This document shows positions 611-24,751 of a DNA stretch of 32,000 nucleotides, piece after piece. The position numbers were made by a program, and so were the translations under genes. The notes below the pieces were generated by a model. The model was not told where the DNA came from and searched no databases. It saw only the letters and a program-made list of their open reading frames with translations. The stretch lies in contig NC_017459.1 of assembly GCF_000237865.1 (NCBI RefSeq), positions 240,001-272,000 of the forward strand, read 5' to 3'. Each line of letters begins with the position of its first letter. Position 1 is the first letter of the stretch. The DNA comes from Haloquadratum walsbyi C23. GTDB lineage: Archaea; Halobacteriota; Halobacteria; Halobacteriales; Haloferacaceae.

Positions 611-629
611 CTGGTTGAGGTGTATTGTG

Positions 630-2066: not shown

Positions 2067-2074
2067 AGACATAC
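2051..2074. repeat. IS66-family right terminal inverted repeat
   Basis: The reverse complement of 2051-2074 matches the left inverted repeat. It overlaps the last codons and the stop of the transposase gene. Confidence 0.7.
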
Positions 2075-2082
2075 GAATGCTG
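2075..2082. repeat. Right copy of the 8-bp target site duplication GAATGCTG (contains the tnpB ATG)
   Basis: Identical to 469-476 and directly abuts the right inverted repeat, which ends at 2074. Confidence 0.85.
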
Positions 2083-5159: not shown

Positions 5160-6290
5160 TTATTCAATTGATGAATCAGTATCATCTTCAGTCAATTCAG
5201 TGTTGACTGCATCAGCATCTGCAACTGCGGCATCAACAACAGCAGATGGTGTTATATCAACATCACTCCACGCTGGAAGATAATCTGGGCTTCCGGGCGG
5301 TTGGATACTCTTTGTGTATGTCTCAATCTGCTCGCGCTCACGAGAGCGAGGATATTCGAATCCATTGAATGTAGCATCAATTGCATACTGATCAAGAAGT
5401 TGCTTTGCTGTGTTTCGATATCGGTGTGGAAGTGTTTCGAAGTCAATCGAAATATCATGTTGTGCGATTGTTCGAAAGAGTGTTTCACCAACTGAGCGAC
5501 TCATCTCTGAGAGTCCAGTGGGTCCAGAGACAGCCCTATGATCATGCTCATACCGACCAAGATCAACCTGCGCTGTATGTGCAAATCCAGCAGCATCAAA
5601 CGCATCAGCAAGCGTTCCGACCTCAAGTCCCCACGAACGAGGAGCCCGAATCTGTGTAACCATCTCGGCAGTTGCGGCGAACTCTCCTGCGAGTGCATAT
5701 CGAAATGAATCCAAATAGCGGAGATATGATGTTGGATGTGCCGTGCGAAGTGCACGAATAAGTGGGACGTAAAATAATCTAAATAATCGCCCGTACAACT
5801 GCCGATCCTCAACACGTGCATAGTATCCCTTTGTGAATTTGAATCCGTGCGCAAGCGGAAAGAGCAATCGCGTGAGAAATGAGCTATCATAACTCACTGT
5901 ATCCGCATCGTGTACGACGACAAATTCTTCTTCAGCTGCACGACCAAGTGCAAGCCACACATCACGACCCTTGCCACTTCGTCCCTCAAGTCCAGCCCCT
6001 TCTAAGAGCTTAGAAACACGAGGACCATCACACCAAAGCACCTCAAGTGTCAGGTCGTATGTTGCAAGCCACTGTCGAAATGAAGTAACCCGAGTTGGTG
6101 GTGCCCGAAGTGGGACAATGACCCTGGCTGGATTGAGATCTTCGAGTGTAGTGAGCACACGGTCAGCCGCAAGTCCAGCGTATTCCCGCTCGGTCATTGG
6201 AACAACTACAGATGCACGTTCGATTGGTGCTGATGGCCGAGGATCATCAAGTTCGTGCAAAGTCGCGATTGATGATTGCACATACTCCAT
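5160..6290 (-). CDS. Glycosyltransferase, GT2/GT81-like (resembles glucosyl-3-phosphoglycerate synthase type)
   Basis: SVVVPMTERE near the N-terminus, GKGRDVWLAL, a DxD motif in VVVHDADTV and FTKGYYARV. This arrangement resembles GpgS-like retaining transferases. The specific substrate is not established. Confidence 0.75.
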   Translation of the reverse strand: MEYVQSSIATLHELDDPRPSAPIERASVVVPMTEREYAGLAADRVLTTLEDLNPARVIVPLRAPPTRVTSFRQWLATYDLTLEVLWCDGPRVSKLLEGAGLEGRSGKGRDVWLALGRAAEEEFVVVHDADTVSYDSSFLTRLLFPLAHGFKFTKGYYARVEDRQLYGRLFRLFYVPLIRALRTAHPTSYLRYLDSFRYALAGEFAATAEMVTQIRAPRSWGLEVGTLADAFDAAGFAHTAQVDLGRYEHDHRAVSGPTGLSEMSRSVGETLFRTIAQHDISIDFETLPHRYRNTAKQLLDQYAIDATFNGFEYPRSREREQIETYTKSIQPPGSPDYLPAWSDVDITPSAVVDAAVADADAVNTELTEDDTDSSIE

Positions 6291-6385: not shown

Positions 6386-7200
6386 TATTGACTTCCTCCA
6401 CACGACTGAACTCGTGGGATTCCTCCGTGGGTAATCCAACCAGTCGATTACCCCGGCTGTGAACTTGCGGGTTCGCTGACGCTGGGTTGGTCAAATGAAC
6501 GCGACTGTTCCCCAAATTCGGCGGGTATCCAGTCGTGCTCATTCCACTTCCAGTACGCCCCATTAGAGGGTGCGTCCCTGTTGCGTTCAACACACAGGGC
6601 AGCAGGCCGAGCCATCGACCCAACTTCAGACTGCATGATGTTCCACGCCCCTGCCACGTCACTGTGACCCTTTGATTCACACTCATGACAGCTAAACGAA
6701 TCGCCAGTCCGAGTCACATCGTTACTCCCGCACTTCGGACACTCACTACTCGAATCAGCTTCGCTCACTTCTTCAACAGCAATCCCAACATCACCGAGTG
6801 TCAGTTCTATCCGCTCCAGTAGTTGCCGATGCGACCAGAAGGCGTAGTTCTTTTCGTTCACGTCAGCACTCCAATGCGTGTCTAACACATTGATAAGCTC
6901 ACCAACGTACACGGTGTCAATGTTCCGTTCGAGCAGCCACTCTGTGGCGTGTTTTACTGCCGCATTGCGGCTGTGATCTCGTATTCGTGACCGCTCTTCG
7001 TACAGGCATTGGATACGGCAGCTCGTGTACTTGTCATCTGGGAGCTCCGATTGGAGTGTAGCGATTCGCTCAGAATAGCTCAGGAACCGCTCAAACTCTG
7101 GACGAGCGTGATACACCGCCGTCTCACCATGTTCAGTGACGACAGCCAACGTGTTGTTTGCACCTACGTCGATGGCAACTGTCTGCGTCGTGTTAGATGA
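6386..7200 (-). mobile_element. 5'-truncated IS1341-type element remnant (right end retained, left end and first third of tnpB missing)
   Basis: On the minus strand the right-end module GGAGGAAGTCAA corresponds to 6388-6399. The tnpB reading frame is closed by an in-frame TGA just upstream of the RuvC-I motif. An unrelated gene ends at 7282, leaving no room for the missing part. Confidence 0.7.
6448..7197 (-). pseudogene. tnpB: Truncated tnpB (C-terminal RuvC plus zinc-ribbon part only)
   Basis: The translation reads SSNTTQTVAIDVGANNTLAVVTEHGE... (RuvC-I) ...ECPKCG...CHECE (zinc ribbon) ...HSDVAGAWNI (RuvC-III). There is no N-terminal WED/REC-like region, and a stop codon lies directly upstream at 7201-7203. 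Confidence 0.75.
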
Positions 7201-7281: not shown

Positions 7282-8472
7282 TTACTCAAATATCGCATCA
7301 AACGCTTGAGCACCGAGTGGGTCAAATGTTCCAGCGGCAACGTTCTCAGAGACATGCTCTGGGGATCCAGTGCCAACAAGTGCAGTGGTGACTCCTGGGG
7401 CACTGCGAGTAAAATTAATTGCTCGTTGTGCCGGCGTTTCCCCTGATAATTCAGTATCAACAGCTGGCGGGATTGCATCTCTATTTGTGAGGTCACCTTG
7501 CGCAAGCGTTGCACTTGCAATGACGTTGATTCCACGCTCTTGTGCATATTGAAGCGCGCTAACCTCTGTAGTCGTCTCAGTATCTGTGTTTGTATTGTTA
7601 TCGAATATACTCTGATTTTGAGCAATACCGGTAGTATCTCCCTGCACAGCCGTATCGTCTCTATGTGCTGGGTCAGGGTGTGCCATTGTAGTAAATGCAT
7701 CTGACATTTGAATACTGAATGGAAGCTGTATCGCCATGAATCCACATTCATCGACTCCAACGGTATCAGCAGCCGCTTCGGCACATGCAACAACGCGTGG
7801 AAGTGACAAATATGAGTCGTGATCCGGAGAGACACGGAATGCGTTCCAACTTGCGACGCCATATCCCCCAATATCCCCAGTCGCGCAACGGCGCTCAAGT
7901 TGCTCAAAAGCTGCAGTTAATTGTTCATAGACAGCTGTCTGAGAACGAACAGTGAGTTGTGTCTCAGGATTATGGACATAATAGCAATCAATGTCGTCAA
8001 CACCAAGATTTCTTAGAGACTGATCAACCATCGAATCAATAAATGCCGGAGTGAGAGCATGACATCCACGAGCCAGTGAAGCAGCGTCCAGGGTTCCATT
8101 CTGAATAAATTCCTCAGTAATGTATTCACCCGGATCTGCTGGTTTCTCCCCATCAAAAGGAATAAATCCGCCTTTTGTTGCAAGGACAATCGCATCGCGG
8201 TCAACGGTTGCATCAGCGATTGCATCTCCGACAACCCGTTCGCTTCGTTGGCATCGATAATTGATTGCAGTATCAAGATGATTGACACCCGACTCAATTG
8301 CATCGACTAATGCACGGTAGTAGCGGTTATCTGCATCATCTGTTGCTGCTCCAAGGTATGTTCCAATCCCAATACTGGAGGTAACGCCTGGATCAAATCG
8401 GCGGAAATATGTCCGACCAAACTCCTCCCCAAATTGTTTTCGATAATTCCACGTACCCCGCTTCGTCGCCAT
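7282..8472 (-). CDS. Aldo/keto reductase family oxidoreductase
   Basis: N-terminal GIGTYLG and the AKR signature GVNHLDTAINY, then VLATKGG and CYYVHNP. It carries an internal T/N/D-rich insertion. Confidence 0.85.
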   Translation of the reverse strand: MATKRGTWNYRKQFGEEFGRTYFRRFDPGVTSSIGIGTYLGAATDDADNRYYRALVDAIESGVNHLDTAINYRCQRSERVVGDAIADATVDRDAIVLATKGGFIPFDGEKPADPGEYITEEFIQNGTLDAASLARGCHALTPAFIDSMVDQSLRNLGVDDIDCYYVHNPETQLTVRSQTAVYEQLTAAFEQLERRCATGDIGGYGVASWNAFRVSPDHDSYLSLPRVVACAEAAADTVGVDECGFMAIQLPFSIQMSDAFTTMAHPDPAHRDDTAVQGDTTGIAQNQSIFDNNTNTDTETTTEVSALQYAQERGINVIASATLAQGDLTNRDAIPPAVDTELSGETPAQRAINFTRSAPGVTTALVGTGSPEHVSENVAAGTFDPLGAQAFDAIFE

Positions 8473-8717
8473 ACATTATTTATCAATCACGCAGATAAAC
8501 GCCCATCGGTGCTGAAATATAGATATACTCCATCATCTGTGGATGTCAAATACAGATAGTGACTTTGAGCGTATCTGATATCGAGTAGCTCTGTTTCTGA
8601 TATGAATCATAGTGATTAGTGCAAGTCTTTACCGCCGTGATTATCGGTGTCGGTGATGGGAGCCGCTGAATCCGCGTCATTCGACACCGTCAGTGAAACT
8701 ATTCAAACTAATCACTA

Positions 8718-9626
8718 TCAGAGCGTGTCCGGGTCTGCTCCATCGGCGACAGCCGCAGTTGGTTCAGCGTATCCCTCACGATACGTCGGATATGAAAACG
8801 TATAATCAAGTTCATGCAGATAATCGTTTGAACATCGCTTACTCGTTCGGACGCGCCGTTGTGCTGTCTCAGAGAGGTTTGATTTCGCAAGTCGCTCCGA
8901 AACAGTCTGTTTGGGTGGGTCAGGGCGACCACATGCCGTTGCAATCCAATCAGCGAATGTCCATTTATGAGCCGGCTCATCATCGACGGCAAGGACACAT
9001 TCCTCACGAGCGACGTCTGCAGTAAGTACGTGATTAATGACACCGGCTGCATCATCGCGATGGATCATATTGAGATATCCCTCAGTTACCGGTCCTGAAA
9101 GATATCGCGTCAATCGATATCGATTTGGACCGTATAATCCAGCAAATCGAGCGACAGTTCCATCGATTCCGACATCCCCTGTTTCCTCGAGTGCGATTGA
9201 TTCTGCTGTTTTGAGAACTTGTGTTTTCTCAGTTGTTGGATCAAGCGATGTTGATTCATCAACAAATTCACCATTATGATCACCATATACACCGGTTGAG
9301 GATGTGTATATGAGTCGATCTGTCGACTCGCGTTCAGCGTATGTAGCAATTGCATTTCGAAGCCCATCAACGTAGATTCGTCGGGCTGACTCAGCACCTC
9401 GACCACCGGAACTGGCGGCGAATATGATCCATTTAGCATCTGGGAGTGTCGAAAGCGTCTCCGGATGGGTTACATCAGCCTGCTGGGCATGAAATCCTGC
9501 TGCCTCAATCGAATTCAGCCCACTTTCTGAGCGTCGAACACCAGTCACCGTGTGCCCGGCTGCCTGAAGTTGTGTGCCAAGTTCAATACCGACGTATCCG
9601 CAACCAATAATAACGGCATGAGCCAT
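8718..9626 (-). CDS. NAD(P)-dependent epimerase/dehydratase-like SDR family protein
   Basis: N-terminal Rossmann motif VIIGCGYVGIELG, and YTSSTGVYGD typical of extended SDRs. Its ATG overlaps the stop of the upstream gene by 1 nt (TAATG at 9624-9628). Confidence 0.8.
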   Translation of the reverse strand: MAHAVIIGCGYVGIELGTQLQAAGHTVTGVRRSESGLNSIEAAGFHAQQADVTHPETLSTLPDAKWIIFAASSGGRGAESARRIYVDGLRNAIATYAERESTDRLIYTSSTGVYGDHNGEFVDESTSLDPTTEKTQVLKTAESIALEETGDVGIDGTVARFAGLYGPNRYRLTRYLSGPVTEGYLNMIHRDDAAGVINHVLTADVAREECVLAVDDEPAHKWTFADWIATACGRPDPPKQTVSERLAKSNLSETAQRRVRTSKRCSNDYLHELDYTFSYPTYREGYAEPTAAVADGADPDTL

Positions 9627-10078
9627 TACTGATCATTACGTTCAGCAAGGAACTGCTGAATCGCTGCAAGTTGTGCAAGCGTCATTGCCGCTCGACCCTC
9701 GAGTGCCTGTTGCACTTCTTGACCAGAGAGATCAAGATCAACATTTGACGCAATAATATCAACATCAACAACGGTTGTGGTCATTGACATCAGTAGATGA
9801 TCACGAAGCTCAAAAATGACTGACTCCGCATCAGGACGAGTCTGATGAACCGCAAGGATTGCTGCTGCATCTTCAGTCCGGAGATCTGGGATTACTGGCG
9901 TGTCTGTATCGGGATCGATATTCGAAAGCGTCTCAATTGTCTTTGCATCAACGTCTGTCTCTTCGGTGACAGTATCAACCCCAACATCGGTGATGACATC
10001 ATGAAGTTGCTGTTCATACGCTGCACAAAGTGCATCAGGTGTCAGTGAACCAGGATTATCTGCTGCATCATAGAGCAT
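9626..10078 (-). CDS. Small acidic hypothetical protein, translationally coupled to the SDR gene
   Basis: The ORF has an ATG at 10078 (the track uses the TTG at 10090). It has acidic composition and a 1-nt stop/start overlap with the downstream gene. Confidence 0.65.
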   Translation of the reverse strand: MLYDAADNPGSLTPDALCAAYEQQLHDVITDVGVDTVTEETDVDAKTIETLSNIDPDTDTPVIPDLRTEDAAAILAVHQTRPDAESVIFELRDHLLMSMTTTVVDVDIIASNVDLDLSGQEVQQALEGRAAMTLAQLAAIQQFLAERNDQ

Positions 10079-10248
10079 ATCGCCTGTCAATACCGCGGCG
10101 ATAAAACAGTTGTTGACATATCGATGCGACCTCCTACCATATGGTCGATATAATGGAGTCCGATAGAAATATCACATAAGATAATGTCAAGATATAAATT
10201 CAGATTAACTCAAAGATTCCTATATACTATATTATCACGGGTAATAAC

Positions 10249-13200
10249 TCACTCAGGTGGGCAGTATCCGGTCGGGGTTGTGCATTGTGCGTCAGCGCCT
10301 GCCCCTGTCCACCCAACAGAACGCTCATCCATATTTCCATCAACATCTCCAACACCGAATGGACCAGATGGGACGACCACAACCGTGGCGGTTCGAACGG
10401 TAAAATCAATCCGTTCATTCCGCCCGAGTGTTTCTGTGGTTCCATCGCCGTCTATATCGAGCGACACTGCTGACCCATCACGAACATACTGCATTGACCC
10501 GGATGCAGTGCCAACGGCAAACCGCCCATATGCGCCGCGAATATCGACTATCCAGAGGTTGACCGTTGCAACCCATGGATTGAATGTCGGGAGTATCGGA
10601 AGTCCGGCAGGAATTGTTGTCACTGTTCCTTTTGTTGCCCGTGTTACAGCACGTTCGGTTGCATTCGCCGCCGCCCCAGAGGCGACTGATTGAGCACCCT
10701 GTTTGAGTGATGACATTGTGTCATCGACTGCTGGCTTAGGGACTTGAACTGACTTACTGGTTGCTACTTTTCGAAGGTCAACTCGTAATGCGGTCTCAAC
10801 CCGATCATACTCATGCTCATGTCCATATGTATATGCTTCGCTTCCCCGGCTGAGTGCTTTCGTTGAGATAGCTTTGGCAAGCGACCCATTCGCAGCGGCT
10901 AATGCGACCGAACCACCATCCCACATTGCAATCGAATCATCAATCGCTGCTGTCCGCGCTGCATTCGAGAGATCTGTTTCCGATTTGAGTGTATGGTCAG
11001 CTTGTTGTTCAACATCTTCCATTGAGTCATTAATTGCTGCTGCGAGTGTATTGCGCCGGGTGCGTAAGGTTGTATCCGGGGCAACGGCAAGACGAGTATC
11101 CGCTGCAATCAGCGCTTGTCCAGCTGTTTGGAGTGAAACACGCCCTCCAGAGCCGAAGACCTGGGATACAATTGTATCGGCTGTATCAGCATATGGAATG
11201 GCAAACACATTCTGATTGCGTGCTGCAAGCGGGATGTATGACGTCTCATCACTAACACCATCGACAAGTGTTGCATTAACAGGGCTCACTCCAAGGTATG
11301 CGGGATCACCGTCAGGGATGATAGTCAGCGGAGCAGAAACACCATTGGCAGTGCCAAGTGTTCGACGGGGTGGCGTGGTCATCGGAGTCAACCCTGCAAG
11401 TTTGTTTATATGAGATGCAGATATCCCTGGCAGATCAAGTCTCTCCGTTATTCCATTGTTTTGTTGCGTTGTCTGCTCTGATTGCTCTTCGAGTTGGGCA
11501 ATGACAGCGTCAATATACGCCCCTCTCATTGCGACTCGAACACGGTCGGCAACGCCATCATATCGCCGTGGTGGGTCAATCAGAGAATATCGCCGACGGT
11601 GGAGTATGTCTGTAAGCTGTTCTGCAGCGTTTGCTTGTCCTGTTGCGATATCATCACCGCTGACCGTCACCGAGATGGTTCGAACCTGCTCACGGAGAGA
11701 ACTCACATCCTCATATATCCATGTTGAAAGTGATTCCGGTCGTTGACCCCTGACAGTCCGGGTTGCAGTCACATCACCATTTACTGCCGCTCGTCGTGCG
11801 ATATCGTCATAGCCACCATTATTTTTTATTAGTCGTTGTGCTGCATCCGTCGTTTCAACGAGATTCGGACCGTCAATTGCCCCACCGGGTTCAAAACTGG
11901 GGGAAATCCCACGCGTCGGAACCGCGAGTGGTACAACTCTCCCTGTAAGGTGTATCTGCACATGCGAGCGCTGACGCCACGAGTCCGTTGTTGTCCGAGG
12001 AGATTTCTCTGGTGCATGCCATGTCCATTGCACTGTTGAGTCAACTGTTACTGAGCGTGCAGCGATATTGATCGTTTGTCGCCCAATTCCATCACTAAAT
12101 CGAGGGCTCACCCATGTTGGAGAGGCAGGCGTCACAGTCACTTTGCGTGATACATCTGTCTCAGCAAGCGTCCAGTTTGCTCCTGGCGGGGTAGGTGTTG
12201 TCGGACGCCCACGCCACTGTATATCGACATCAGTTGTGAGTTGAGCCCATGCCGTATAGCCGGTCTGACTGATCTGTTTATATGATGCTGTGGTATCCCC
12301 TTCTCGGATAACTGCAAGAAATGCCTCATCAGCCGTGCCGTTCACCCCGACTGTAATCGTCCGCTCTGCTGAGGGGACTGGATCGGGATATTTTGACTTC
12401 GTTTCGCGCACGCGCAACCGTTCAGGGGCGTTTGGTCCTGGGATTGCACCGGTAACCACAGCGGAAACACGCGGTGGTGTCAATGGGGTAAGAACATCAT
12501 TCATCCCTGTATTGAGTGTTGCTATTCGGAGTCCTGCAGCAGCATCGGGGTCACTCCGTCCAAAAACCGCTCGCTGTGAGTCAACAAGACCAGCATTCGT
12601 TGAAAGTGTCACATGTGAATTCGATAAAACATTTTCAATTGGTGCACCAGCATACTGTCCCAGCCCACGAGCCTGTGTGACTGCATTTAACCCGATTGTT
12701 GTCCGTCGAGCAAGACCTGGACCCCCAAGCGCATCAGCATCAAGTCGACGCTGAAATTTCACTGTTTGATCATGAAGCGCAAGAACGGGAACCGCAACCG
12801 TCATGCTTCGATTAATAACGCGAGTATTGACAACGCGGTTATCACGCATGACTGTCAACTGTATTCCTCGAACCGTCGTGCGGAGCTCAGTCCCATCATC
12901 AACACCTACAACGGAGACGTGTGTAAGCAACGGTTCAATATCACTATACTGTGGGAGTGTAACACGTGCGGCACTTCGACCACGCTGATGCTCAATATTC
13001 ATCAATGCCTCACGCGTTTGAAGATAGATTCTCAACTCAAGCGCTCGACGAAATGTGGCAGTCGTCCCAAGCGCACGTCCAACAGCGCTCTCAGTGGGGA
13101 TAGTAACAGGCTCTCGGGCTGCAGCATGGGCTGCACGACGGATCGCACCACGAAGGGCAGCAGTTGTCTCAGCGTCGACACGGTCGGCAACCGCATCAGC

Positions 13201-13332
13201 TGTCCGGTCAACTGGTGCTGCCCCAGGTGTCGCAAGTGAAAACGTAATCATTGAACTCCCAACAAGCAAGAGCACACCAACCAGCGCGAATGGAACACGA
13301 GCACGATCATCAGACCCGATTGAGCGACCCAT
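10249..13332 (-). CDS. 1027-aa protein with an N-terminal hydrophobic helix (pilin-like anchor), last gene of the pilus-like operon; function unknown
   Basis: The long ORF starts MGRSIGSDDRARVPFALVGVLLLVGSSMITF. Its ATG overlaps the upstream stop (TAATG at 13330-13334). No second TM segment is obvious. Confidence 0.85.
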   Translation of the reverse strand: MGRSIGSDDRARVPFALVGVLLLVGSSMITFSLATPGAAPVDRTADAVADRVDAETTAALRGAIRRAAHAAAREPVTIPTESAVGRALGTTATFRRALELRIYLQTREALMNIEHQRGRSAARVTLPQYSDIEPLLTHVSVVGVDDGTELRTTVRGIQLTVMRDNRVVNTRVINRSMTVAVPVLALHDQTVKFQRRLDADALGGPGLARRTTIGLNAVTQARGLGQYAGAPIENVLSNSHVTLSTNAGLVDSQRAVFGRSDPDAAAGLRIATLNTGMNDVLTPLTPPRVSAVVTGAIPGPNAPERLRVRETKSKYPDPVPSAERTITVGVNGTADEAFLAVIREGDTTASYKQISQTGYTAWAQLTTDVDIQWRGRPTTPTPPGANWTLAETDVSRKVTVTPASPTWVSPRFSDGIGRQTINIAARSVTVDSTVQWTWHAPEKSPRTTTDSWRQRSHVQIHLTGRVVPLAVPTRGISPSFEPGGAIDGPNLVETTDAAQRLIKNNGGYDDIARRAAVNGDVTATRTVRGQRPESLSTWIYEDVSSLREQVRTISVTVSGDDIATGQANAAEQLTDILHRRRYSLIDPPRRYDGVADRVRVAMRGAYIDAVIAQLEEQSEQTTQQNNGITERLDLPGISASHINKLAGLTPMTTPPRRTLGTANGVSAPLTIIPDGDPAYLGVSPVNATLVDGVSDETSYIPLAARNQNVFAIPYADTADTIVSQVFGSGGRVSLQTAGQALIAADTRLAVAPDTTLRTRRNTLAAAINDSMEDVEQQADHTLKSETDLSNAARTAAIDDSIAMWDGGSVALAAANGSLAKAISTKALSRGSEAYTYGHEHEYDRVETALRVDLRKVATSKSVQVPKPAVDDTMSSLKQGAQSVASGAAANATERAVTRATKGTVTTIPAGLPILPTFNPWVATVNLWIVDIRGAYGRFAVGTASGSMQYVRDGSAVSLDIDGDGTTETLGRNERIDFTVRTATVVVVPSGPFGVGDVDGNMDERSVGWTGAGADAQCTTPTGYCPPE

Positions 13333-14183
13333 TATGATCTACCGCCATGATCCCATGTTCGAATGACAATCTCGACCGTCGACACCGATACCGCCTCAGT
13401 TGCCACTGCTGGTGTTTCATATCGATCTCGAAGATCACTCGTGATTTCTGGGGCAAGTGCCGCTGTCAATCGTTCATTTGCCTCAGAGGTATCCTCTATT
13501 GCCAGTGGCTCAGCAAGCGATGCATTGGTCAATGACTGCAATTGAGCGTAGCGATGCCGAGTGAGAGTTATCTCTGGTTCATCATCACGCATCATGACCC
13601 GTGCTGGTCCTGGTGGAATAACAACAGCAATAATACGCGCAGCAACAGCAGTTCCAAGAGTTTGAAACTGGTCATGGGTATCGATTGCGAGTGGCTCAAC
13701 GCCGACGGGGATGCTTACAGTCGCGGTATGCACATCATCAGACAGTGGTCGTGGACCAACACTGAAGTGAGCAAATAAAGGCGACCCTGGATATGGTATC
13801 CAACGAGCATCAACACGGACACGCCCACCTGTTCGAGCGCGGACAGCGTTGCGAACCCGAAGGCGAAACATATCATCTATCCGTGTGATTTGTGCTTTTT
13901 GTGTTCGAGTTCCGCTGATTGTCGCATGTGTAATAAGTCCGGCAAGTGTCCCATGAGTCCGACGAGTGAGGTGATGACGGTCAGGAGAGATTGCTTGATC
14001 AGCGAGATTATTGACTTCTAACCGTGGTGAGTGTTCAACAGTTGTGGTGGTGGTTGTGAGTGTATTAGCAACGGTATCAGCACGGTCAATCCGTGTTGGT
14101 GGTGATTGATCGACGGTAAGAACGCCTGCAATCGCAGCCGTAATGAGTATAATACAAACAAGTGCATCAACGGCTGCATTCAT
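13332..14183 (-). CDS. 283-aa protein with an N-terminal hydrophobic helix (pilin-like), unknown family
   Basis: I prefer the start MNAAVDALVCIILITAAIAGVL because its ATG forms an ATGA overlap with the upstream stop (14180-14183). The mature part is Arg-rich. Confidence 0.75.
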   Translation of the reverse strand: MNAAVDALVCIILITAAIAGVLTVDQSPPTRIDRADTVANTLTTTTTTVEHSPRLEVNNLADQAISPDRHHLTRRTHGTLAGLITHATISGTRTQKAQITRIDDMFRLRVRNAVRARTGGRVRVDARWIPYPGSPLFAHFSVGPRPLSDDVHTATVSIPVGVEPLAIDTHDQFQTLGTAVAARIIAVVIPPGPARVMMRDDEPEITLTRHRYAQLQSLTNASLAEPLAIEDTSEANERLTAALAPEITSDLRDRYETPAVATEAVSVSTVEIVIRTWDHGGRS

Positions 14184-14662
14184 TGCCACACTCGAACAAT
14201 AATAATACCCCAATCAACACCACTGTCAACGGCAACACCAACCGAGCGGGTGACACTGTCAGTGTGAGCATTGTCTACCGGTGGGTGTGGTCCATACTGC
14301 CATTCATCAGAGTCAGTATAAATTGAAATATTCGCTTGATATCCCCGAGGAACAGACATCGATGCTGACGTAGGAGCGACAGTCACGTTGGTTGGGTCAA
14401 GCACACCACCGGGTGCGTGAATATCGATAATTCGATCTGCAGTCGGTCCGGCGAGTTCACGATCAGATGATGACTGAAAGATGTCTGTTAGTGTCGTTGC
14501 ATACAGTGATACGCCCACGCAAACAGCGAATAATGCAATTAGTGCAACAATTGGTGGTGTTTGTGCGCGACACTCAATAGAATCAGGATTAACATCAAGA
14601 CTAAAATCACGATTAGCCATCCAGGTATCTGGTAATATTGACAATGGTGTCCAAGAGCGCAT
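14180..14662 (-). CDS. 160-aa protein with a class III-like signal/hydrophobic helix (pilin-like), unknown family
   Basis: The ATG at 14662 lies 1 nt after the upstream stop (TAA-T-ATG). The sequence ...ECRAQTPPIVALIALFAVCVGV resembles the R-A/G-Q prepilin cleavage context. The track start at 14728 would overlap the upstream gene by 65 nt. Confidence 0.7.
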   Translation of the reverse strand: MRSWTPLSILPDTWMANRDFSLDVNPDSIECRAQTPPIVALIALFAVCVGVSLYATTLTDIFQSSSDRELAGPTADRIIDIHAPGGVLDPTNVTVAPTSASMSVPRGYQANISIYTDSDEWQYGPHPPVDNAHTDSVTRSVGVAVDSGVDWGIIIVRVWQ

Positions 14663-14663
14663 A

Positions 14664-15188
14664 TTACACCCCCACGAGGACAACATCTTCGTCATTCCAT
14701 GAGACACGTCGAATGACAACAGGACCATCGACAGGACGCCATGTTACATTCATTCCATTCGCTTGGGCAGTTGTGACTGCATCAAGAAATGCAGCTTCTG
14801 AGTCAAAGACGTATGTTGGTGGTGAGCCATACAGAATATCACGAAGGCGGTTATCATGTGAGTTATTCGATTCAGAAAAGACGGGCGTGACTGGACCAAA
14901 TGCAAGCGTTGCATGGGCAGTTCCAGCATCTGATTTTAGTCCAATACGATATGTTCCAAGGCGAATTGCATCTGCAGTAAGCGGGTGTTCGGCTGTTGCA
15001 GGATACTCTGCTGCCCCAACGCGGTCAATCGTCGTTGCAACAGCCGCTGCATCTGGTGGCTTTGTTGTTGGAAGACCACTAACAGCACCAATCAGCGTAA
15101 TACCCGCAATGGAAAGACCAATCCAAGCATACCACGCATCAACAGGAATATTGAACATGCTGTGAATGGTTTCGGTGTCATATATCAA
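14664..15188 (-). CDS. About 165-174-aa protein with an N-terminal hydrophobic helix (pilin-like), unknown family
   Basis: Hydrophobic segment DAWYAWIGLSIAGITLIGAV. The start is either the TTG at 15188, preceded by a GAGGTG Shine-Dalgarno-like motif, or the ATG at 15158 (MFNIPV). Confidence 0.7.
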   Translation of the reverse strand: MIYDTETIHSMFNIPVDAWYAWIGLSIAGITLIGAVSGLPTTKPPDAAAVATTIDRVGAAEYPATAEHPLTADAIRLGTYRIGLKSDAGTAHATLAFGPVTPVFSESNNSHDNRLRDILYGSPPTYVFDSEAAFLDAVTTAQANGMNVTWRPVDGPVVIRRVSWNDEDVVLVGV

Positions 15189-15319
15189 CCTACACCTCAG
15201 AATATAGCGATATTACCGAGTGAAATAGCCTGTACTACTATAACCAGTCGAATTGCTGATTGTCTCTATGTGAAGTATATCATCAATAATACTGTAACAT
15301 ATCAGTATGTTCGAATTGG

Positions 15320-17155
15320 CTAAAATACTGCTATTGCACCGATATATGCAGTAAAATACGTCGCTGTTCCTGACAGAAGCGCAAGTCCGACACGATATCC
15401 GACAAGCGAGCGTTCAAGCCCTTGTTCTAGTCCTGTGGCAAGAATGGTAAGGATAGCTGCTAAAAGAAGAATATAAATACCGACAGCAATCCCAAGTATC
15501 TCTGGTGGAATTGCTGTTGCACCGCTGACGGTGGACCCAACAGTCGGAGGCTGTGAAGATGGTCCAAGAGCCGGTCCTGTTGTTGCACTCATCGAATCGG
15601 TTGAACCGCTTGCCTCAGCCATTTTTGTTGCCATTGAAACTGTTGCCCCACCCACAAGCGGTCCAAACAGTGCTGCTGTGTGGCTGAGTGTTCCAGTAAT
15701 ACTCGCGAGTTCACGTCGTGCGGCTGACTCTGTTTGTTGAACTGTTCGAAGATGATCGGCGAGTGTCTGAAGCGTCTCACCAGCAGGTCGCCCTTCTCGT
15801 GCTGCAACCCCGATGAGCACTGCTGTTGCACGTGCTCTATCACTGGGAACATCTGAAAGCGCGCCGTATGGACCCAAGAATGCTTGCTGGATATCGACAC
15901 GAAGGCGATGTTGAACACCGGCAGCTGTTTTGAAGACAGTGCTTGTCTCACCAATCGTTGCATCCGCAGCAGCGGTCAGTGATGTTTCGACTGCCTCACC
16001 TGCTCCAACACGTCGCCCGATAACAGCGGTTGCGTCTGCGAGTCCCGATTCAATATCTGCAACTTGCTTTCGAACCGCCGCAGCAGGGTGATATTGAACG
16101 GTAAGCCCAGCACCGACTCCGATTCCACAAGCAGCGATTGGACCACCCCATGGGACGACTGTCGAGCCGATACCCCATCCAATAAGGGCACCAGCTGATA
16201 CAGCAACAATACCACGGACACTGCCGGCTGGAAGCGCAGGATGTGAGCGTGGGATCTGTGTTGGGGCAAACGCAACCGGGCGCTGAAGCAGTATCCACCC
16301 GCTTGCAGTCAACAACCCGATAGGAAGCAGAAAATCATAGAATAAAACGAATGCACCCGTTGGGATGGAAACACCACCAGCCCGGGCGGCTGGAAGAACC
16401 CCAACAAGTGCAAGTGGAAGCAACACCCCAAACGCGTAGAGACCACTCGCCGGTCCACGGACTGTCCCCGCAAACCCAGCCGTTGTTGAGCGGATCCCGG
16501 AGAGGACGGCATCAATTCCACTCTCAATCGCGTCAGTACGATCTTCAGGCGGGGTATCGACTGCTGCCCGAAGTAAAGTGAGTGACCGCTCAAGTGGGCG
16601 AAACCAGGGTTTCCACTCCGAAGCAAAACGCATCAGTCCGGCTGTTGGACCCATGTTTGTCTGATCAACATGTGCCTGCAGACTTTCTGCAAGCGGTCCT
16701 GTTCCAGTCCGCGCAGCGAATGCAGATGCACGCTCTGGTGGACCATCAAGTTGGAGTCGAAGACCAATCCGACCAACAAGCCCTGGTGTAGCCCCAAGTG
16801 CCCGAGTGCGACGCAGCGTTGCAAGTGCAATTGGAAGTGTCTGAGTGAGATATGTCACGCCAACTCCAATGGCACCCGATAGCAATAATACAACACACAG
16901 CGCTCTGAGAGAAAGAGAAGTGCCAATCAGAGCTATCCCTCCGATCAAGCATACGGAAGTAAGTATCCCAACAGGGACGGCAAGCACGTATCCAGCGGCG
17001 ATGATCGTCTCTGGACGGATAGATACATTTAGAAATGCGAGCGCTCGAACGAACTCAGGTGTCGCTGAGACATCTCCTGGATACTGATTGGCGAGTATTC
17101 TTGTGAGCTTCTTGATTCGACTTGCAGTATTATCGAGAATGAGTTCTCGTCGCAT
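15320..17155 (-). CDS. Polytopic membrane platform protein, TadC/PilC/FlaJ-like (type II secretion system F-like)
   Basis: 611 aa with many hydrophobic segments separated by soluble helical regions. It lies immediately downstream of the secretion ATPase and is coupled to it by a 1-nt overlap (TAATG at 17153-17157). The family call rests on position and topology, not on a specific motif. Confidence 0.75.
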   Translation of the reverse strand: MRRELILDNTASRIKKLTRILANQYPGDVSATPEFVRALAFLNVSIRPETIIAAGYVLAVPVGILTSVCLIGGIALIGTSLSLRALCVVLLLSGAIGVGVTYLTQTLPIALATLRRTRALGATPGLVGRIGLRLQLDGPPERASAFAARTGTGPLAESLQAHVDQTNMGPTAGLMRFASEWKPWFRPLERSLTLLRAAVDTPPEDRTDAIESGIDAVLSGIRSTTAGFAGTVRGPASGLYAFGVLLPLALVGVLPAARAGGVSIPTGAFVLFYDFLLPIGLLTASGWILLQRPVAFAPTQIPRSHPALPAGSVRGIVAVSAGALIGWGIGSTVVPWGGPIAACGIGVGAGLTVQYHPAAAVRKQVADIESGLADATAVIGRRVGAGEAVETSLTAAADATIGETSTVFKTAAGVQHRLRVDIQQAFLGPYGALSDVPSDRARATAVLIGVAAREGRPAGETLQTLADHLRTVQQTESAARRELASITGTLSHTAALFGPLVGGATVSMATKMAEASGSTDSMSATTGPALGPSSQPPTVGSTVSGATAIPPEILGIAVGIYILLLAAILTILATGLEQGLERSLVGYRVGLALLSGTATYFTAYIGAIAVF

Positions 17156-19239
17156 TATTCACCTAGATTTTGGGGATTTGTTGTATCCCACGAGACAGCA
17201 CCTTGTTTTGGATTGACTAACTCAATCTCAGCGCGGCGTTCAAGTGTCTCATGACGGTCAGCAAGTGCGGTTCGAAAATCAGCGTATGAATCTGTTGTCC
17301 CTCGACAGAGACGCTCAATAATACGGCTATCTCCACGTTCGATCACGCCGGTTGAGGTAAGTTTCCCATCAATTCGGGTGAATAATGAGACAAACTGAAT
17401 ATCGTCAGTTGTTTTTCCGGTTCTGACCTCCTCAACATGAGATACAAATCGGTCATCACCACGACGAGTACAGGTTACAATGAGGTCTGTTGCACTGAAT
17501 GCAGAGGCTGGTACTCCAAGATCCGAAACGACCCGTTCACGGACAGCGACGCCGGAATCACCATGGATTGTTCCAAGGACAGCATGACTGTGTGCACCAA
17601 CGCGCATCGCCTCATACAGTGCTGCCGCCTCCTCACCACGAACTTCCCCAATCGCCAGTGCGCCATTCCCAAGTCGAAGTGCTGTTCGAAGTGCGGTAGT
17701 CGGCGTAAATGTGGCTCCAGTAATTCCAGTTGTGTCTGTCTCAGTATACAATGGTTGTATATCACGACCATGCTCACGTAATGCTTCAACAGGAAGTTCA
17801 GGTGTATCTTCGACGCTCACAAGACGGGTTGTATGTGGAAGTTCCCACAGGAGCGCCCCGAGTAATGTTGTTTTGCCAGCACCGCGGGTTCCTGCAACAA
17901 TCGTTGCTGCACCACGAGCAGTTACGACAGACAGAAATGCGGCTGCAGCGGGGGTGAGTGACCCGACAGTGAGCAATCGAGTGAGTGTCCATGGCGTCGT
18001 ATCACGAGCGCGAAATGCAAATCCAAGCCCGTCACTCGCTGGTGCTGTAATACCTGCAATACGGATTTGTCGACCAGTCTCAGCAGTGACAGTCGCATCT
18101 AGTGTGGGTGTACTTCGAGAGAATGCACGACCACTTTCACGACGAAATCGCGAGGCAAGCGTGGCTGCACCGGATGGTCGCAAACGGATATTCGTCGCCA
18201 TGCGCTCGTCATCAAGGACAATTCGAATCGGTGTTTTACTGACTGGTGATGACGCAATCACATCGGAAATACGATCATCTGCAAAGAGATGTTCAATCAC
18301 CCCAAGTCCCTGGGTATGACGAGTCAGAATCGCCGTCAACGTTTCAACAGGATCCTCATCAGTGGCGACATACCGGACAGCACGACTTGGTGCCCGAGAG
18401 CCATCTCCACCACCGCCATCGACTGACCCTGTTCCAAGACATTCATACGCCATTGCTAGTGTGTCAATTGCGGTTGAATCGAGATTATGAAATGCCGGGT
18501 CAAGATGATAGTACTGTTTTGCTTCAGTATTGCTATCGACATTCGTATCGGTGGAATACATCCGAGCTGTTGCGTCAGTCGAGAGGTCTGTAACATCGAG
18601 AAGTGTTGCATCCGGTGGTGGAGAGCGTTCAAGATGTGATCGAGACAGCGTCGGGGCGACAAATGGACTGAGTGCTGTCTCAACTGCAGTCTCTGTAAGT
18701 GAATCAAAGCCTGTGTCGGTAGCGATATCCCCAACGGGACCGGCTCGACCTGTTGCGTGGTATGCGGCTTTTCCAGGATCCTCTCGAGCGCGAGTGGCTA
18801 TCTCTGGGTCATGAAACCGGACACGCTCGATAAACCGCCCAATCGCTTGAAGCGTGGCTGCAGCGTCATCTGCGTATGTTCGCTCAATTCCATCGGATAT
18901 CGTTCGAATAATAGCGACGTTATTGTGTGTGAGTGCGTCAATGACAGTCTCTCGACAGGCAGATGCGGATGCAAGGTCACCACTACCTGGACAGTCCGTT
19001 GCATCAACAACAAGTTCACTTCGATCAGGTACCCCAGTTCCAGTTGGTGTTTCAACGGCAACACAACAGCGACATCGGGACTCTTTATCCGAGTTTGCAT
19101 TATCAGACAGTGCATTCATCTCGATTGTTGACGCTGAAACAACAGACGATAGATATTCACAGACTGATGATGGCAGTATCCGTCTGAGATATGCGTTGAT
19201 ACCAGTCATACTCGCAGTATCAATAGATAGGATCGACAC
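17155..19239 (-). CDS. Type II/IV secretion-system ATPase (PilB/TadA/FlaI/VirB11 superfamily) with a long N-terminal extension
   Basis: Walker A GTRGAGKTT, Asp box VSVEDTPEL, Walker B ALAIGEVRGEE and His box LGTIHG. About 450 residues precede Walker A. The exact start is uncertain (Met at residues 1, 11 and 41). Confidence 0.9.
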   Translation of the reverse strand: MSILSIDTASMTGINAYLRRILPSSVCEYLSSVVSASTIEMNALSDNANSDKESRCRCCVAVETPTGTGVPDRSELVVDATDCPGSGDLASASACRETVIDALTHNNVAIIRTISDGIERTYADDAAATLQAIGRFIERVRFHDPEIATRAREDPGKAAYHATGRAGPVGDIATDTGFDSLTETAVETALSPFVAPTLSRSHLERSPPPDATLLDVTDLSTDATARMYSTDTNVDSNTEAKQYYHLDPAFHNLDSTAIDTLAMAYECLGTGSVDGGGGDGSRAPSRAVRYVATDEDPVETLTAILTRHTQGLGVIEHLFADDRISDVIASSPVSKTPIRIVLDDERMATNIRLRPSGAATLASRFRRESGRAFSRSTPTLDATVTAETGRQIRIAGITAPASDGLGFAFRARDTTPWTLTRLLTVGSLTPAAAAFLSVVTARGAATIVAGTRGAGKTTLLGALLWELPHTTRLVSVEDTPELPVEALREHGRDIQPLYTETDTTGITGATFTPTTALRTALRLGNGALAIGEVRGEEAAALYEAMRVGAHSHAVLGTIHGDSGVAVRERVVSDLGVPASAFSATDLIVTCTRRGDDRFVSHVEEVRTGKTTDDIQFVSLFTRIDGKLTSTGVIERGDSRIIERLCRGTTDSYADFRTALADRHETLERRAEIELVNPKQGAVSWDTTNPQNLGE

Positions 19240-19323
19240 AGACTGCGTGGTGACGGGATATTACTTGAGCATCAGGCTGTGCTCGTCTATGTGTGAATAT
19301 GATTCCGAGTGATAATGAGAATG

Positions 19324-19797
19324 TTACCCGCGTGTGATGACAATCACCGTACGTGATCGCTCACGGACGAATGAGAGAATAATATTATGAGAACCCGCTG
19401 ATTGAAAAACGACAGGTCCTTGTGGTGTTCGAACCGGGACAGGAAGTGAGATCACGCGACGAGGAACCGATGTCTTCGCCGACGTCGCTGAGAGAGCGTA
19501 TGTAACTACAGGTTGGTTTCCAACAGTATTCGGAGAGCCACCGATAGCCACAAATTCGGTTTCTGGTGCAGTCAATGATTGTATAGGAATTGTAATATCA
19601 ACATGCCGTGTTGCTGCATACAATCGCGACCGCGTTGCATCCTCATTCATGACTAATTCGCGACCGGCGCGCTCAATTCGGTCAGCAGCAGCGTCATATT
19701 CAGTCGCCGTCCGCGTTTGTGTTGCATCTGTAATTGCGGGGATTGCAATCGCCATCGTTGCAAGGAGTAACACAGCCGCAATGACCAGTCGGATCAC
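19324..19797 (-). CDS. 157-aa protein with an N-terminal hydrophobic helix (pilin-like), unknown family
   Basis: The GTG start gives MIRLVIAAVLLLATMAIAIPAI. It forms a GTGA overlap with the stop of the upstream gene (19794-19797). Confidence 0.7.
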   Translation of the reverse strand: MIRLVIAAVLLLATMAIAIPAITDATQTRTATEYDAAADRIERAGRELVMNEDATRSRLYAATRHVDITIPIQSLTAPETEFVAIGGSPNTVGNQPVVTYALSATSAKTSVPRRVISLPVPVRTPQGPVVFQSAGSHNIILSFVRERSRTVIVITRG

Positions 19798-20657
19798 TCA
19801 AATGCTGCACGAAGGCGAGCCGCTAATGATGTTTCATCCGAGTCATCAGTGTGATTCTCCGCTGTGTCCTCTTGATCGGATGTATTATGATTCCGGTGAG
19901 ACCGTGATTCACTCTCAGCATTGTTTTGATCTCTTGTCGGCGTGTCTCGCTCTGCAGTTGATCTCGGTACTGATTGCTGTTTCACCGCATCATGCGCTTT
20001 CGGGCGATGTGTTGCCATCCCTTCACAGGTCGCACATGTCGATATGTCGTGTGTCGCGGTTTGGTTTGGATTAACTCCCGATGAACGGTCGCTTGAGGGT
20101 GCTTGATTCTTGTATTGTTGGTTTAGCTGTGTTGTCTCCGATTCTGTTGTTATGTCTTGAGTTCCGTCCTCTTCAAGCCGTGATTCGACTGCTTCAATTT
20201 TCGCAAGCGCAATGTTCGCTCGTTGTTCGACGGCTTCATCAACTGCACTCACACTCTCAATAAGTCCGCGGATAGCCGCCAGTTCACCGGTAATCGCGTT
20301 GAGACGTGATTCAATCCCTCCGACTCGATTCATAATCTCTGGACCTGTCTTTGTTTTTGTCTTTGTCTCTGTCTCTATCGGTGTTTCCTCGCCTGATACT
20401 GATGATGACATGTCGCTGTTCGTATGTGCAGGGTGCGATGTCTCCTCAGTAATCGTTGAATCCGGATTTGAACTTTCAGGGTCGATTGTATCGGACATGT
20501 CGATAGCCTGGAGATCTGGCACTGATGAGAGATTCACACCACTATTGTGATCCGATGATACCTCAGTCGAATCGATTGTATCGGTTACTGTCGATTCACT
20601 GACAGCGCGTTCGACAGCATCAAGACGGGCAGCAAGCGCATCATCTGCGGAGTCCAT
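19794..20657 (-). CDS. 287-aa highly acidic protein with coiled-coil segments, first gene of the pilus-like operon
   Basis: ATG start. Helical heptad-like stretches (IESRLNAITGELAAIRGLIESVSAVDEAVEQRANIALAKIEAVESRLEE). LAARL motifs occur at both termini. No TM segment. Confidence 0.75.
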   Translation of the reverse strand: MDSADDALAARLDAVERAVSESTVTDTIDSTEVSSDHNSGVNLSSVPDLQAIDMSDTIDPESSNPDSTITEETSHPAHTNSDMSSSVSGEETPIETETKTKTKTGPEIMNRVGGIESRLNAITGELAAIRGLIESVSAVDEAVEQRANIALAKIEAVESRLEEDGTQDITTESETTQLNQQYKNQAPSSDRSSGVNPNQTATHDISTCATCEGMATHRPKAHDAVKQQSVPRSTAERDTPTRDQNNAESESRSHRNHNTSDQEDTAENHTDDSDETSLAARLRAAFE

Positions 20658-24000: not shown

Positions 24001-24751
24001 TCCTCAAAAGGAACTACTCACGACAGTCTCCCTACATAATTACCTGACAGAATCAAATTCAACAACAAAGCAAATACTCACAAACGTTCTTCCAGGGCAC
24101 GTACAGATTGACTCTGGACTCTCTGTTCTGCCGGCACCACAGCAGTCGATTACCGGAACAACGACCGTTGCACCGGGAACACAAATATCGATTCACCTTC
24201 GCTCCAATAATTCACAATCTGCGTTCAATCAAACGGTCACTGCGACTGTTGGGAGTACTCGTACCTGGGAGATGCTCATCAACGCTTCTTCGATGACACC
24301 TGATACGTCATTTACCCTCCAATCGATTGATACACGCTCGGGGGTCGAAACGATCGAAGGCTACGCTATCGGATATGTTCGAACGGATGCGCAGTCAAGA
24401 GAAACGCCGAATGAAACCACCGCCGATACAAAGAGCAGCACGGGTGGCGGTGGTGGTGGACGAATTGCCAGTGTGATATCCAGATTATTTGGTGATGATG
24501 TTGATGATGGGCGAGGACAGGGGCAATCTGAAGAGAAAACCCCGTCTCAATCAGAAACAGAGCGTACAACAGAAGAGACGACTCTGGGGAATCCACAGGC
24601 TGTCGTCGGCAATCTCGCAGACGCTGTCCTTGGAACGGTCGTTGAAAATGTTGTTAGGTCATCATTGCTTGGTCGACTGTCGCGTCCCGCTGCAATTGCT
24701 GTTGGAGCCCTCCTAACAATCGCTGTAGCATTCCTCTATCGACGGCATTAG
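21074..24751 (+). CDS. 1225-aa secreted, C-terminally anchored cell-surface protein with a long Pro-Thr linker
   Basis: N-terminal signal/anchor [20 protein letters not shown] (PT)n region of about 106 codons. Many N-x-S/T sequons. A Gly run followed by a C-terminal [22 protein letters not shown], with no PGF motif. Confidence 0.85.
21713..22030 (+). repeat. Coding tandem repeat (period 6 nt, higher-order about 18 nt) encoding (Pro-Thr)n
   Basis: ccgaca/ccgacg/ccaaca/ccaact units are repeated throughout. The minus-strand ORFs at 21655-22068 and 21699-22037 are by-products of this repeat. Confidence 0.9.

Follow-up and report, generated by a model that had tools for sequence, protein, structure and literature searches.

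A 1,027-residue DUF7286 family protein encoded at the end of the subclade-4F PilB2/PilC2 operon of Haloquadratum walsbyi C23

Makarova, Koonin and Albers (2016; PMC4858521) assigned a gene string of Haloarcula hispanica to "subclade 4F" in their Table S4. This string runs from arCOG07564 and arCOG10216 through the arCOG01818 ATPase, the arCOG01814 TadC protein (i.e., in the position equivalent to that of PilC2), and the predicted pilins arCOG04673, arCOG05166, and arCOG06291 to a surface protein of ~1000 amino acids (aa; arCOG02945), which is followed by arCOG04674 and arCOG03095. The arCOG02945 family was described there as a type IV pilus (T4P)-associated surface protein (PMC4858521), and a 2026 preprint names it the "adhesin-like protein homolog" of subsystem 4F. 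The pilB2/C2 regulon adjoins cetZ2 in Haloferacales and Halobacteriales (Brown and Duggin 2023), and of the several type IV filament loci of Halobacteria, pili have been tied to only one (i.e., pilB3C3 in Haloferax and pil-1 in Halobacterium). Here we describe a member of the arCOG02945 family from Haloquadratum walsbyi C23, encoded in a stretch of 32,000 nucleotides (nt) of contig NC_017459.1 (positions 240,001 to 272,000; hereafter, the window, in whose coordinates all positions are given). The gene is the last one of the subclade-4F PilB2/PilC2 operon, with the same gene order as in Haloarcula hispanica. Its product combines a conserved leader motif and a single anchor helix with a fold that is predicted with confidence but resembles none of those known. 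While the family and its suspected role are already in the literature (Makarova 2016; the 2026 preprint), the conserved leader motif and the restriction of the predicted -1 position to Ala or Gly (Thr in one sequence) are new findings of the present analysis, as are the sequon enrichment, the C-terminal Cys pair and calcium-type loops, the unmatched predicted fold, and the PilC2-like conservation.

The DUF7286 gene and its operon

The open reading frame (ORF) occupies positions 10249 to 13332 on the minus strand; it starts with ATG, comprises 1027 codons, and its translation opens with MGRSIGSDDRARVPFALVGVLLLVGSSMITF. The coordinates and the N-terminal sequence had been reported correctly in a first-pass annotation, to which the strand is an addition. 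According to an exact-sequence look-up, the 1027-aa product is identical to H. walsbyi C23 WP_014555106.1/CCC39191.1, labeled "DUF7286 family protein" by NCBI. Pfam DUF7286 (PF23957) matched it over profile positions 1 to 1000 of 1000 with 1098 bits (cut-off, 27). The protein is a member of DUF7286/arCOG02945, where the Pfam family was equated with the arCOG on the basis of matching gene order and sizes. Because the DUF7286 match is full length and there are many homologues of similar size, the ORF represents a genuine gene rather than a chance reading frame; within its established DUF family it is an ordinary member, and its annotation is correct.

A word-indexed search yielded 220 homologues, and those listed are nearly all ~1000 to 1160 aa in length. 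An exhaustive profile search of 1.84 billion representatives yielded 567 DUF7286 cluster representatives; among the 150 matches listed, nearly all are full-length family members. Except for a few mis-assigned metagenome-assembled genomes, all of the source-named homologues are from Halobacteria. A genome scan located 375 DUF7286 loci in species-representative genomes, and no viral copies were found in a scan of IMG/VR. Literature searches, including those with the names DUF7283 to DUF7311, found no experimental work on the family. On one metagenome contig (4152 nt), the C-terminus of DUF7286 runs into DUF5791 (arCOG04674, a predicted helix-turn-helix [HTH] protein) in a product of 1156 aa; we rejected this single case from a short contig as a Rosetta-stone fusion, a read-through or an assembly error being likely.

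The stop codon of the upstream gene and the ATG of the DUF7286 gene overlap by 1 base (TAATG); together with the overlaps between the preceding genes of the operon (ATGA or 1 nt), this constitutes translational coupling. Since a 158-nt AT-rich spacer follows the DUF7286 stop codon on its 3' side, before the next gene, the coupled block ends with DUF7286. The first-pass annotation had placed the gene, start/stop-coupled, at the end of a pilus-like operon; the overlap and the spacer agree with the former point, and Pfam and NCBIfam matches, synteny, and the gene string of Makarova et al. agree with the latter. Among 80 fetched genome loci (neighbors identified by tblastn), the order ATPase-TadC-DUF7283-DUF7285-DUF7284-DUF7286 is colinear wherever the contig allows, and the gaps are attributable to contig ends or weak tblastn matches. 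The DUF7286 gene stands directly after the pilin-like genes on the same strand in 80/80 loci where the contig is long enough.

A comparison of length and conservation in syntenic haloarchaeal loci, as had been proposed at first pass, revealed a near-constant length and a level of conservation similar to that of PilC2. Measured as tblastn bits per residue against the same loci in three divergence classes, conservation was 0.88, 0.71, and 0.45 for DUF7286 versus 0.94, 0.70, and 0.57 for PilC2, and it exceeded that of DUF7284, DUF7285, and DUF7311. Together, the PilC2-like conservation and the constant length suggest that the protein has a conserved role in a structure whose partners are fixed, rather than being an adhesin that diversifies.

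N-terminus and predicted ectodomain

A Kyte-Doolittle scan (19-residue window) detected a single transmembrane (TM)-like segment at residues 15 to 33 (score, 2.18; next best window, 1.19), in line with the earlier description of one hydrophobic helix with no further obvious TM segment. We aligned 94 family sequences (35 to 86% identity to the query). The charged leader comprises residues 1 to 11 (MGRSIGSDDRA; positions 13300 to 13332, minus strand) and extends to a predicted class III site (R10-A11 / R12). It is followed by a hydrophobic, pilin-like anchor helix at residues 13 to 33 (VPFALVGVLLLVGSSMITFSL; 13234 to 13296, minus strand), which is delimited by the TM-like window, by its conservation, and by a predicted helix at residues 15 to 32. 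The helix is predicted to be oriented N-in, C-out.

The consensus N-terminus of the family is M-R-L-A-[DE]-D-[RD]-R-[AG]-R-V-P-F-A-L-V-G-V-L-L-L-V-G-S-S (94 sequences), with a conserved leader motif D-x-R-[A/G]-R-V-P-F-A-L. R10, R12, V13, P14, F15, A16, and L17 each occur in at least 86 of the 94 sequences (R10 in 92, R12 in 93), and V13, P14, F15, A16, L17, G19, V20, L21, L22, and L23 are each at least 90% conserved. At position 11 (the predicted -1), 61 sequences have Ala, 31 Gly, and 1 Thr. A short charged leader, a basic -2 residue, and a small -1 residue are reported to be decisive for the sites of archaeal class III signal peptidases (PMC3387779). The DUF7286 N-terminus has an 11-aa leader, a basic -2 residue, Gly or Ala at -1, and a hydrophobic stretch of ~20 aa, which suggests that the leader would be cleaved by PibD after R10-[A/G]11. 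Other export and anchoring signals were not supported. We rejected a twin-arginine translocation (Tat) signal since position 9 is Arg in only 38 of the 94 sequences and the Phe lies five residues after the RR pair (i.e., the wrong spacing). A residue scan and Pfam revealed no N-terminal Cys for a lipobox and no C-terminal TM segment or PGF motif for a PGF anchor.

Related features are seen in the other proteins of the operon. The R-A-Q-T-P motif of DUF7285 aligns in register with DUF7286 as R-A-[R/Q]-[V/T]-P, with a weak hhalign match between the two families (E = 5e-4 to 2.5e-3). DUF7311, DUF7283, DUF7285, DUF7284, and DUF7286 (13234 to 20657, minus strand) have a common layout, in which a TM helix of ~22 aa is followed by a Pro/Gly linker, and a moderately conserved x-D-R-[V/I/A] motif lies ~35 to 40 residues past the helix start in all five of these single-TM proteins. 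In hhalign comparisons for common ancestry of the operon N-termini, matches were weak (E = 5e-4 to 6e-3; probability, 6 to 32%). To judge from these alignments, the shared N-terminal layout may represent a common assembly module.

We modeled the protein with AlphaFold2 using the 94-sequence alignment as input. The full-length model had a mean predicted local distance difference test score (pLDDT) of 83.4, a predicted template modeling score (pTM) of 0.66, and 591 residues at a pLDDT of at least 90; a separate model of residues 1 to 310 had a pLDDT of 85.7. The N-terminal ectodomain (residues 41 to 306; 12415 to 13212, minus strand) is predicted in this sub-model to consist of a 30-residue helix, a five-stranded antiparallel sheet with hairpin strands of 15 residues, and a helical bundle. 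In the full-length model, the central region (residues 323 to 730; 11143 to 12366, minus strand; mostly pLDDT >90) would contain long beta-strands at 360 to 466 (15 to 22 residues) and long helices at 493 to 646. A helical bundle (residues 731 to 890; 10663 to 11142, minus strand; Pfam match, only DUF7286) and a C-terminal beta domain (residues 921 to 1010; 10303 to 10572, minus strand) are predicted to follow, the latter being delimited by the conservation profile and by modeled strands at 922 to 1004. Overall, the model predicts very long beta-hairpins at 149 to 179 and 360 to 466, with strands of 15 to 22 residues, and helical bundles at 183 to 295, 535 to 646, and 734 to 889. The best-conserved stretches of the sequence are the first ~25 residues, 176 to 250, and 921 to 1010.

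The structure prediction and fold search, which were also proposed at first pass, thus yielded a confident model that matched no known fold in the PDB or BFVD. Against the PDB, Foldseek returned no credible match for the full-length model; TolC, SecDF, SecB, and OmpX/Ail were rejected, as their template modeling scores (TM-scores) were at most 0.26 with very large root mean square deviations (rmsd). A TolC-like identity, which is suggested by the UniRef name of one homologue, was also rejected: the E value was 7e-4, but the TM-scores were 0.05 to 0.11 with an rmsd of ~50 A and a probability of 0.3, and there is neither an internal repeat nor a Pfam OEP match. Against BFVD, Foldseek found nothing at E <= 0.001, and the weak matches were mostly to levivirus maturation proteins (E > 0.02). 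Residues 1 to 310 are modeled with a helix-plus-antiparallel-sheet topology, but it is generic; SPLUNC1/BPI-like and actin-capping matches of this fragment (E >= 0.04) were rejected as generic helix-on-sheet similarities.

Sequence searches gave a similar picture. Searches of PDB sequences with the full-length profile and with a C-terminal fragment and its profile found only a phage fiber and an adenylate kinase (both E = 0.7, i.e., noise). A relaxed Pfam scan (E up to 10) of fragment 1 to 131 and of four fragments across residues 323 to 1027 matched only DUF7286, with no pilin or archaellin family, and NCBIfam had no match for the protein. No adhesin-type domain (PilY1/PilC, DUF2341, Ig-repeat, vWA, lectin, or beta-helix) was detected by Pfam, NCBIfam, or Foldseek against the PDB and BFVD. 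The first-pass annotation had seen no obvious internal repeats, and an all-against-all hhalign comparison of seven sub-domain profiles indeed found none (probabilities, <4%). It had also named an uncleaved signal anchor on an enzyme with a recognizable catalytic domain as one result that would overturn its reading, and no catalytic domain was found by Pfam, NCBIfam, or Foldseek. A profile of the C-terminal domain found only truncated DUF7286 fragments; this domain occurs in no other family. The predicted fold is modeled with confidence and has no known relative, and the model contains no pilin head, adhesin domain, or enzyme domain.

Several features of the ectodomain are those of a surface protein. 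N-X-S/T sequons occur at 11.0 per 1000 aa versus 3.7 expected from shuffling (i.e., a threefold enrichment), and eight sequon positions are conserved in at least 45% of the family members; conserved sequons include those at family positions 156, 331, 442, 552, and 815. The charge around the helix follows the positive-inside rule, with positive residues before it and acidic residues after it. The only cysteines of the protein (C1017 and C1024; 10261 to 10284, minus strand) are conserved in 65 and 79 of the 94 sequences, respectively, and probably form a disulfide loop. Because of the charge distribution, the sequon enrichment, and this C-terminal Cys pair, the ectodomain is probably extracellular, and probably glycosylated. 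Near the C-terminus are two calcium-type loops: D959-I-D-G-D-G-T-T-E967 (DxDxDG-like; 10432 to 10458, minus strand), in which D959, D963, G964, and E967 are each at least 90% conserved, and G993-V-G-D-V-D-G-N-M-D-E1003 (10324 to 10356, minus strand), in which G993, V994, G995, D996, D998, G999, and E1003 are at least 90% conserved or invariant. These DxDG..E loops may bind metal. The family is rich in Arg (13 to 16%) and poor in Lys (<1%), with a median isoelectric point (pI) of 9.1 and a pI of 6.3 for the H. walsbyi member; such a non-acidic family is unusual for a predicted haloarchaeal exoprotein. The net charge per domain varies between species from about -20 to +19.

Possible roles in the 4F system

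With a probability of roughly 45%, we propose that DUF7286 is a large dedicated extracytoplasmic subunit of the 4F machine, with a pilin-type anchor and probable processing, that acts in an initiation or tip complex. The protein would be inserted N-in/C-out through its single N-terminal helix, and PibD, the class III signal peptidase, would remove the short leader after R10-[A/G]11. The helix would then let DUF7286 join DUF7283, DUF7285, and DUF7284 on the PilC2 platform in a joint initiation complex of a short filament or pseudopilus that is driven by the PilB2 ATPase. This complex could carry the N-glycosylated ectodomain of ~990 residues outward, towards or through the surface layer (S-layer), in a role that might parallel those of GspK, PilY1 with minor pilins, or TadG.

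Several observations weigh against this proposal. The +1 residue of the predicted cleavage site is Arg in 93 of the 94 sequences, whereas the +1 residues accepted by FlaFind or present in known substrates are Q, A, V, L, I, F, and similar ones; Arg at +1 lies outside the FlaFind pattern and is atypical for known archaeal pilins. Pilins have one long alpha1 helix, whereas the helix of DUF7286 is predicted to end at residue 32, right after the membrane segment, with a break at the conserved Pro/Gly linker (residues 33 to 43) before a second helix at residues 44 to 73. No pilin was among the top 50 matches when residues 1 to 310 were compared with the PDB by Foldseek (best E, 0.04). H. walsbyi, a planktonic organism, has no obvious need for adhesion. 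A static machine part would account for the PilC2-like conservation and the near-constant length just as well as a tip subunit would. In addition, arCOG02945 is not flagged as FlaFind-positive in Table S4 of Makarova et al. (PMC4858521), and according to the 2026 preprint, only pilB3C3 of the five pil clusters of H. volcanii forms visible pili. The pilin-like N-terminus postulated in the first-pass annotation thus stands for the leader, the -2 and -1 residues, and the helix, and fails for the +1 residue, the continuity of alpha1, and the pilin head; membership in the type IV pilins is partial. Its suggestion of a tip or adhesin role was not supported: the confident model has no pilin head or Ig, lectin, vWA, beta-helix, or PilY1-like module, and the conservation and near-constant length fit a machine part better than a variable adhesin.

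The same observations bring forward the main alternative, possible if doubtful, in which DUF7286 is a static scaffold: an uncleaved type II anchor would hold it as a basal, pseudo-periplasmic part of the 4F machine, where it could serve as a stator, help in alignment, or form a collar that opens the S-layer (cf. ArlF/ArlG, PilN/PilO, and membrane-bound TadG). A conservation level close to that of PilC2 and above those of the small pilin-like proteins would fit such a part, as would an almost invariant length with the whole protein colinear across the family, the helix break at the conserved Pro/Gly linker, and the lack of an adhesin-type fold. The Arg-rich, non-acidic family would also suit contact with an anionic membrane or S-layer, and according to a suggestion in the 2026 preprint, certain large proteins linked to T4P prepare the cell wall so that filaments can pass. 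However, the short charged leader and the invariant Arg followed by a position restricted to Ala or Gly resemble a prepilin peptidase site, and the place of the gene after three coupled pilin-like genes mirrors minor-pilin sets.

We also considered, as an unlikely case, that DUF7286 is not an adhesin but the new-fold structural core of a filament-derived machine without a classical pilus. This could be an envelope-spanning or S-layer-gating assembly of five proteins that share one N-terminal module, in which the Arg-rich surface would bind a polyanion (e.g., DNA, a sulfated glycolipid membrane, or an S-layer glycan) and whose function could be linked to the neighboring CetZ2 cytoskeleton and to cell-envelope genes. 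If true, it would explain why the operon is intact in a non-adherent, non-motile, planktonic square archaeon.

It is quite improbable that DUF7286 is a generic surface or S-layer-associated glycoprotein that is co-transcribed with the operon and independent of PilB2/PilC2. Other large surface proteins are encoded nearby in the window, as this explanation would have it, but in every locus on a sufficiently long contig the gene stands directly after the pilin-like genes, it shares 1 base with the gene upstream, and neither the C-terminal domain nor the family occurs in any other architecture. It is very improbable that DUF7286 is an extracellular enzyme on a membrane anchor whose catalytic domain has diverged beyond recognition: this is suggested only by the size of the protein and a set of invariant polar residues (H187, H240, R101, R222, N246, D261, N490, and N708), whereas no catalytic family was found in Pfam or NCBIfam, even at E up to 10 on fragments, no PDB sequence matched, and the confident model had no structural match above a TM-score of 0.26.

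No pili have been attributed to the subclade-4F/PilB2C2 system, which adjoins cetZ2 in many species, and DUF7286 is its largest and most distinctive component. The prepilin-type site, the probably glycosylated ectodomain, the unmatched predicted fold, and the machine-part-like evolution together offer handles on the 4F system.

Neighboring genes and described filament systems

The coupled block lies on the minus strand and begins with DUF7310 (arCOG07564; 19794 to 20657), an acidic cytoplasmic coiled-coil protein (Pfam; pI 4.4; PMC4858521, section 12), which overlaps DUF7311 by 4 nt. For subclade 4F, Tables S1 and S6 of Makarova et al. give DUF7311 (arCOG10216; 19324 to 19797; Pfam, 126 bits) as the "predicted major pilin." The PilB2 ATPase (694 aa; 17155 to 19239) belongs to the VirB11/TadA/FlaI superfamily (Pfam T2SSE, E = 1e-18), with NCBIfam TadA-family and FlaI matches that are both under the family cut-offs. 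Its first ~100 residues form an extension with a Cys cluster (SRCRCCV...DCPG...AC), which fits the variable Cys-rich N-terminal domain described for subclade-4F ATPases (PMC4858521). PilC2 (611 aa; 15320 to 17155) is a TadC-like polytopic membrane platform with several TM segments and a weak T2SSF match.

Three predicted pilin-like proteins follow on the same strand. DUF7283 (arCOG04673; 14664 to 15188; Pfam, 182 bits) has one TM segment, was found in 77 of the 80 loci, and is predicted to be pilin-like in Makarova Table S4. DUF7285 (arCOG05166; 14180 to 14728) is a predicted pilin on the basis of Pfam and the class III motif R-A-Q-T-P, of which RAQT is conserved in 67 orthologues. Its longest ORF has an N-terminal extension of ~50 residues that the orthologues do not have, and the conserved part starts just before R-A-Q-T-P; the real start codon is probably internal to the listed ORF. 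DUF7284 (arCOG06291; 13332 to 14213; Pfam, 263 bits) is a predicted pilin and is FlaFind-positive in Makarova Table S4. Judging from an N-terminal alignment, translation of DUF7284 probably begins with the ATG at position 14183, in which case the gene would overlap DUF7285 by ATGA.

Outside the coupled block, on the minus strand, are DUF5791 (arCOG04674, predicted HTH; 9626 to 10090; Pfam), which is downstream in 65 of the 80 loci, and a NAD-dependent sugar epimerase (arCOG03095; 8718 to 9626; Pfam), which is downstream in 64 of the 80 (PMC9856176 for both). The downstream string DUF5791-epimerase-aldo/keto reductase (in the window at 7282 to 9626, minus strand) is kept in most genera. In Haloferax mucosum, the one other locus examined for it, a DHH/DHHA1 gene that is absent in H. 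walsbyi stands between the epimerase and the aldo-keto reductase, and in Halobellus loci, DUF5791 and the epimerase do not adjoin the operon. This downstream variation fits the published view of the pil block as an inserted module. Papers on "PilB2" of Natrinema and Halobacterium were not used because they concern different loci of the same name: Halobacterium pil-2 corresponds to subclade 4C of Makarova, and the Natrinema PilB2 gene adjoins pilA genes.

Elsewhere in the window, a 1225-aa protein (21074 to 24751, plus strand) is encoded divergently from the operon. It has an N-terminal signal-like segment, a C-terminal TM anchor, and a Pro-Thr repeat run of ~100 residues, with 18- and 24-nt tandem DNA repeats at 21728 to 22029; it had no Pfam match and, among the 80 loci, was found only in Haloquadratum J07HQW1. 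Two further surface proteins are encoded on the plus strand, one of 822 aa (24994 to 27462) with a PGF-CTERM archaeosortase signal and, towards the C-terminus, repeats rich in Thr, Pro, and Glu, and one of 542 aa (29345 to 30973) with CARDB, NPCBM_assoc, and DUF11 domains. Since these large surface proteins are encoded nearby, the operon lies in a cluster of cell-envelope genes. At the other end of the window are an IS66-family transposase (615 to 2066, plus strand), which sits in a stretch with a G+C content of 0.60 versus ~0.48 elsewhere and is directly followed by an IS605 OrfB/TnpB (Cas12f-like) gene (2050 to 3390, plus strand); a truncated TnpB of 233 aa (6448 to 7149, minus strand); and a 376-aa ORF (5160 to 6290, minus strand) with no Pfam match at E <= 0.001.

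Among better-known systems, GspK, the large minor pseudopilin that caps the pseudopilus of the type II secretion system (T2SS) in the GspI-J-K tip complex, offers a tentative analogy. In each case, a series of pilin-like genes after the ATPase and platform genes appears to end with its largest member, and both proteins would combine an N-terminal hydrophobic segment of pilin type with a large extra domain. However, no sequence or fold similarity was detected, and the H. walsbyi protein, an archaeal one of about three times the size, has a membrane helix that ends in a Pro/Gly break. Like PilY1/PilC, DUF7286 has ~1000 aa and is encoded with minor pilins, and its two DxDG..E loops lie in a C-terminal beta domain; the C-terminal domain of PilY1 carries a regulatory calcium-binding site. 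Instead of the pilin-like anchor, PilY1 carries an ordinary signal peptide, and DUF7286 has no beta-propeller, vWA domain, or Pfam PilC/PilY1 match.

TadG of the bacterial Tad/Flp pili may be a further analogue: its gene, likewise large, comes last, behind tadC and the genes of two small pseudopilins (tadE and tadF), and its product has one hydrophobic segment of pilin type at the N-terminus. Tad systems probably derive from archaeal T4P. DUF7286, in contrast, matches neither the TadE/TadG N-terminal families (PF07811 and PF13400; E up to 10) nor vWA. With archaeal pilins and archaellins (i.e., PilA/DUF1628 and ArlA/B), DUF7286 shares the short charged leader, the basic -2 residue, Gly or Ala at -1, Val at +2, and the hydrophobic helix, so that D-R-G-Q-V in haloarchaeal archaellins compares with D-R-A-R-V in DUF7286. 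It differs in the Arg at +1, in lacking an Ig-like or alpha-beta-roll head by Foldseek, and in being 5 to 10 times longer, which agrees with the early remark that it is far larger than normal archaeal pilins. The closest described counterpart is the terminal gene of subclade 4F itself (arCOG02945/DUF7286; PMC4858521), of whose family the H. walsbyi protein is a member, in the same operon and with the same architecture.

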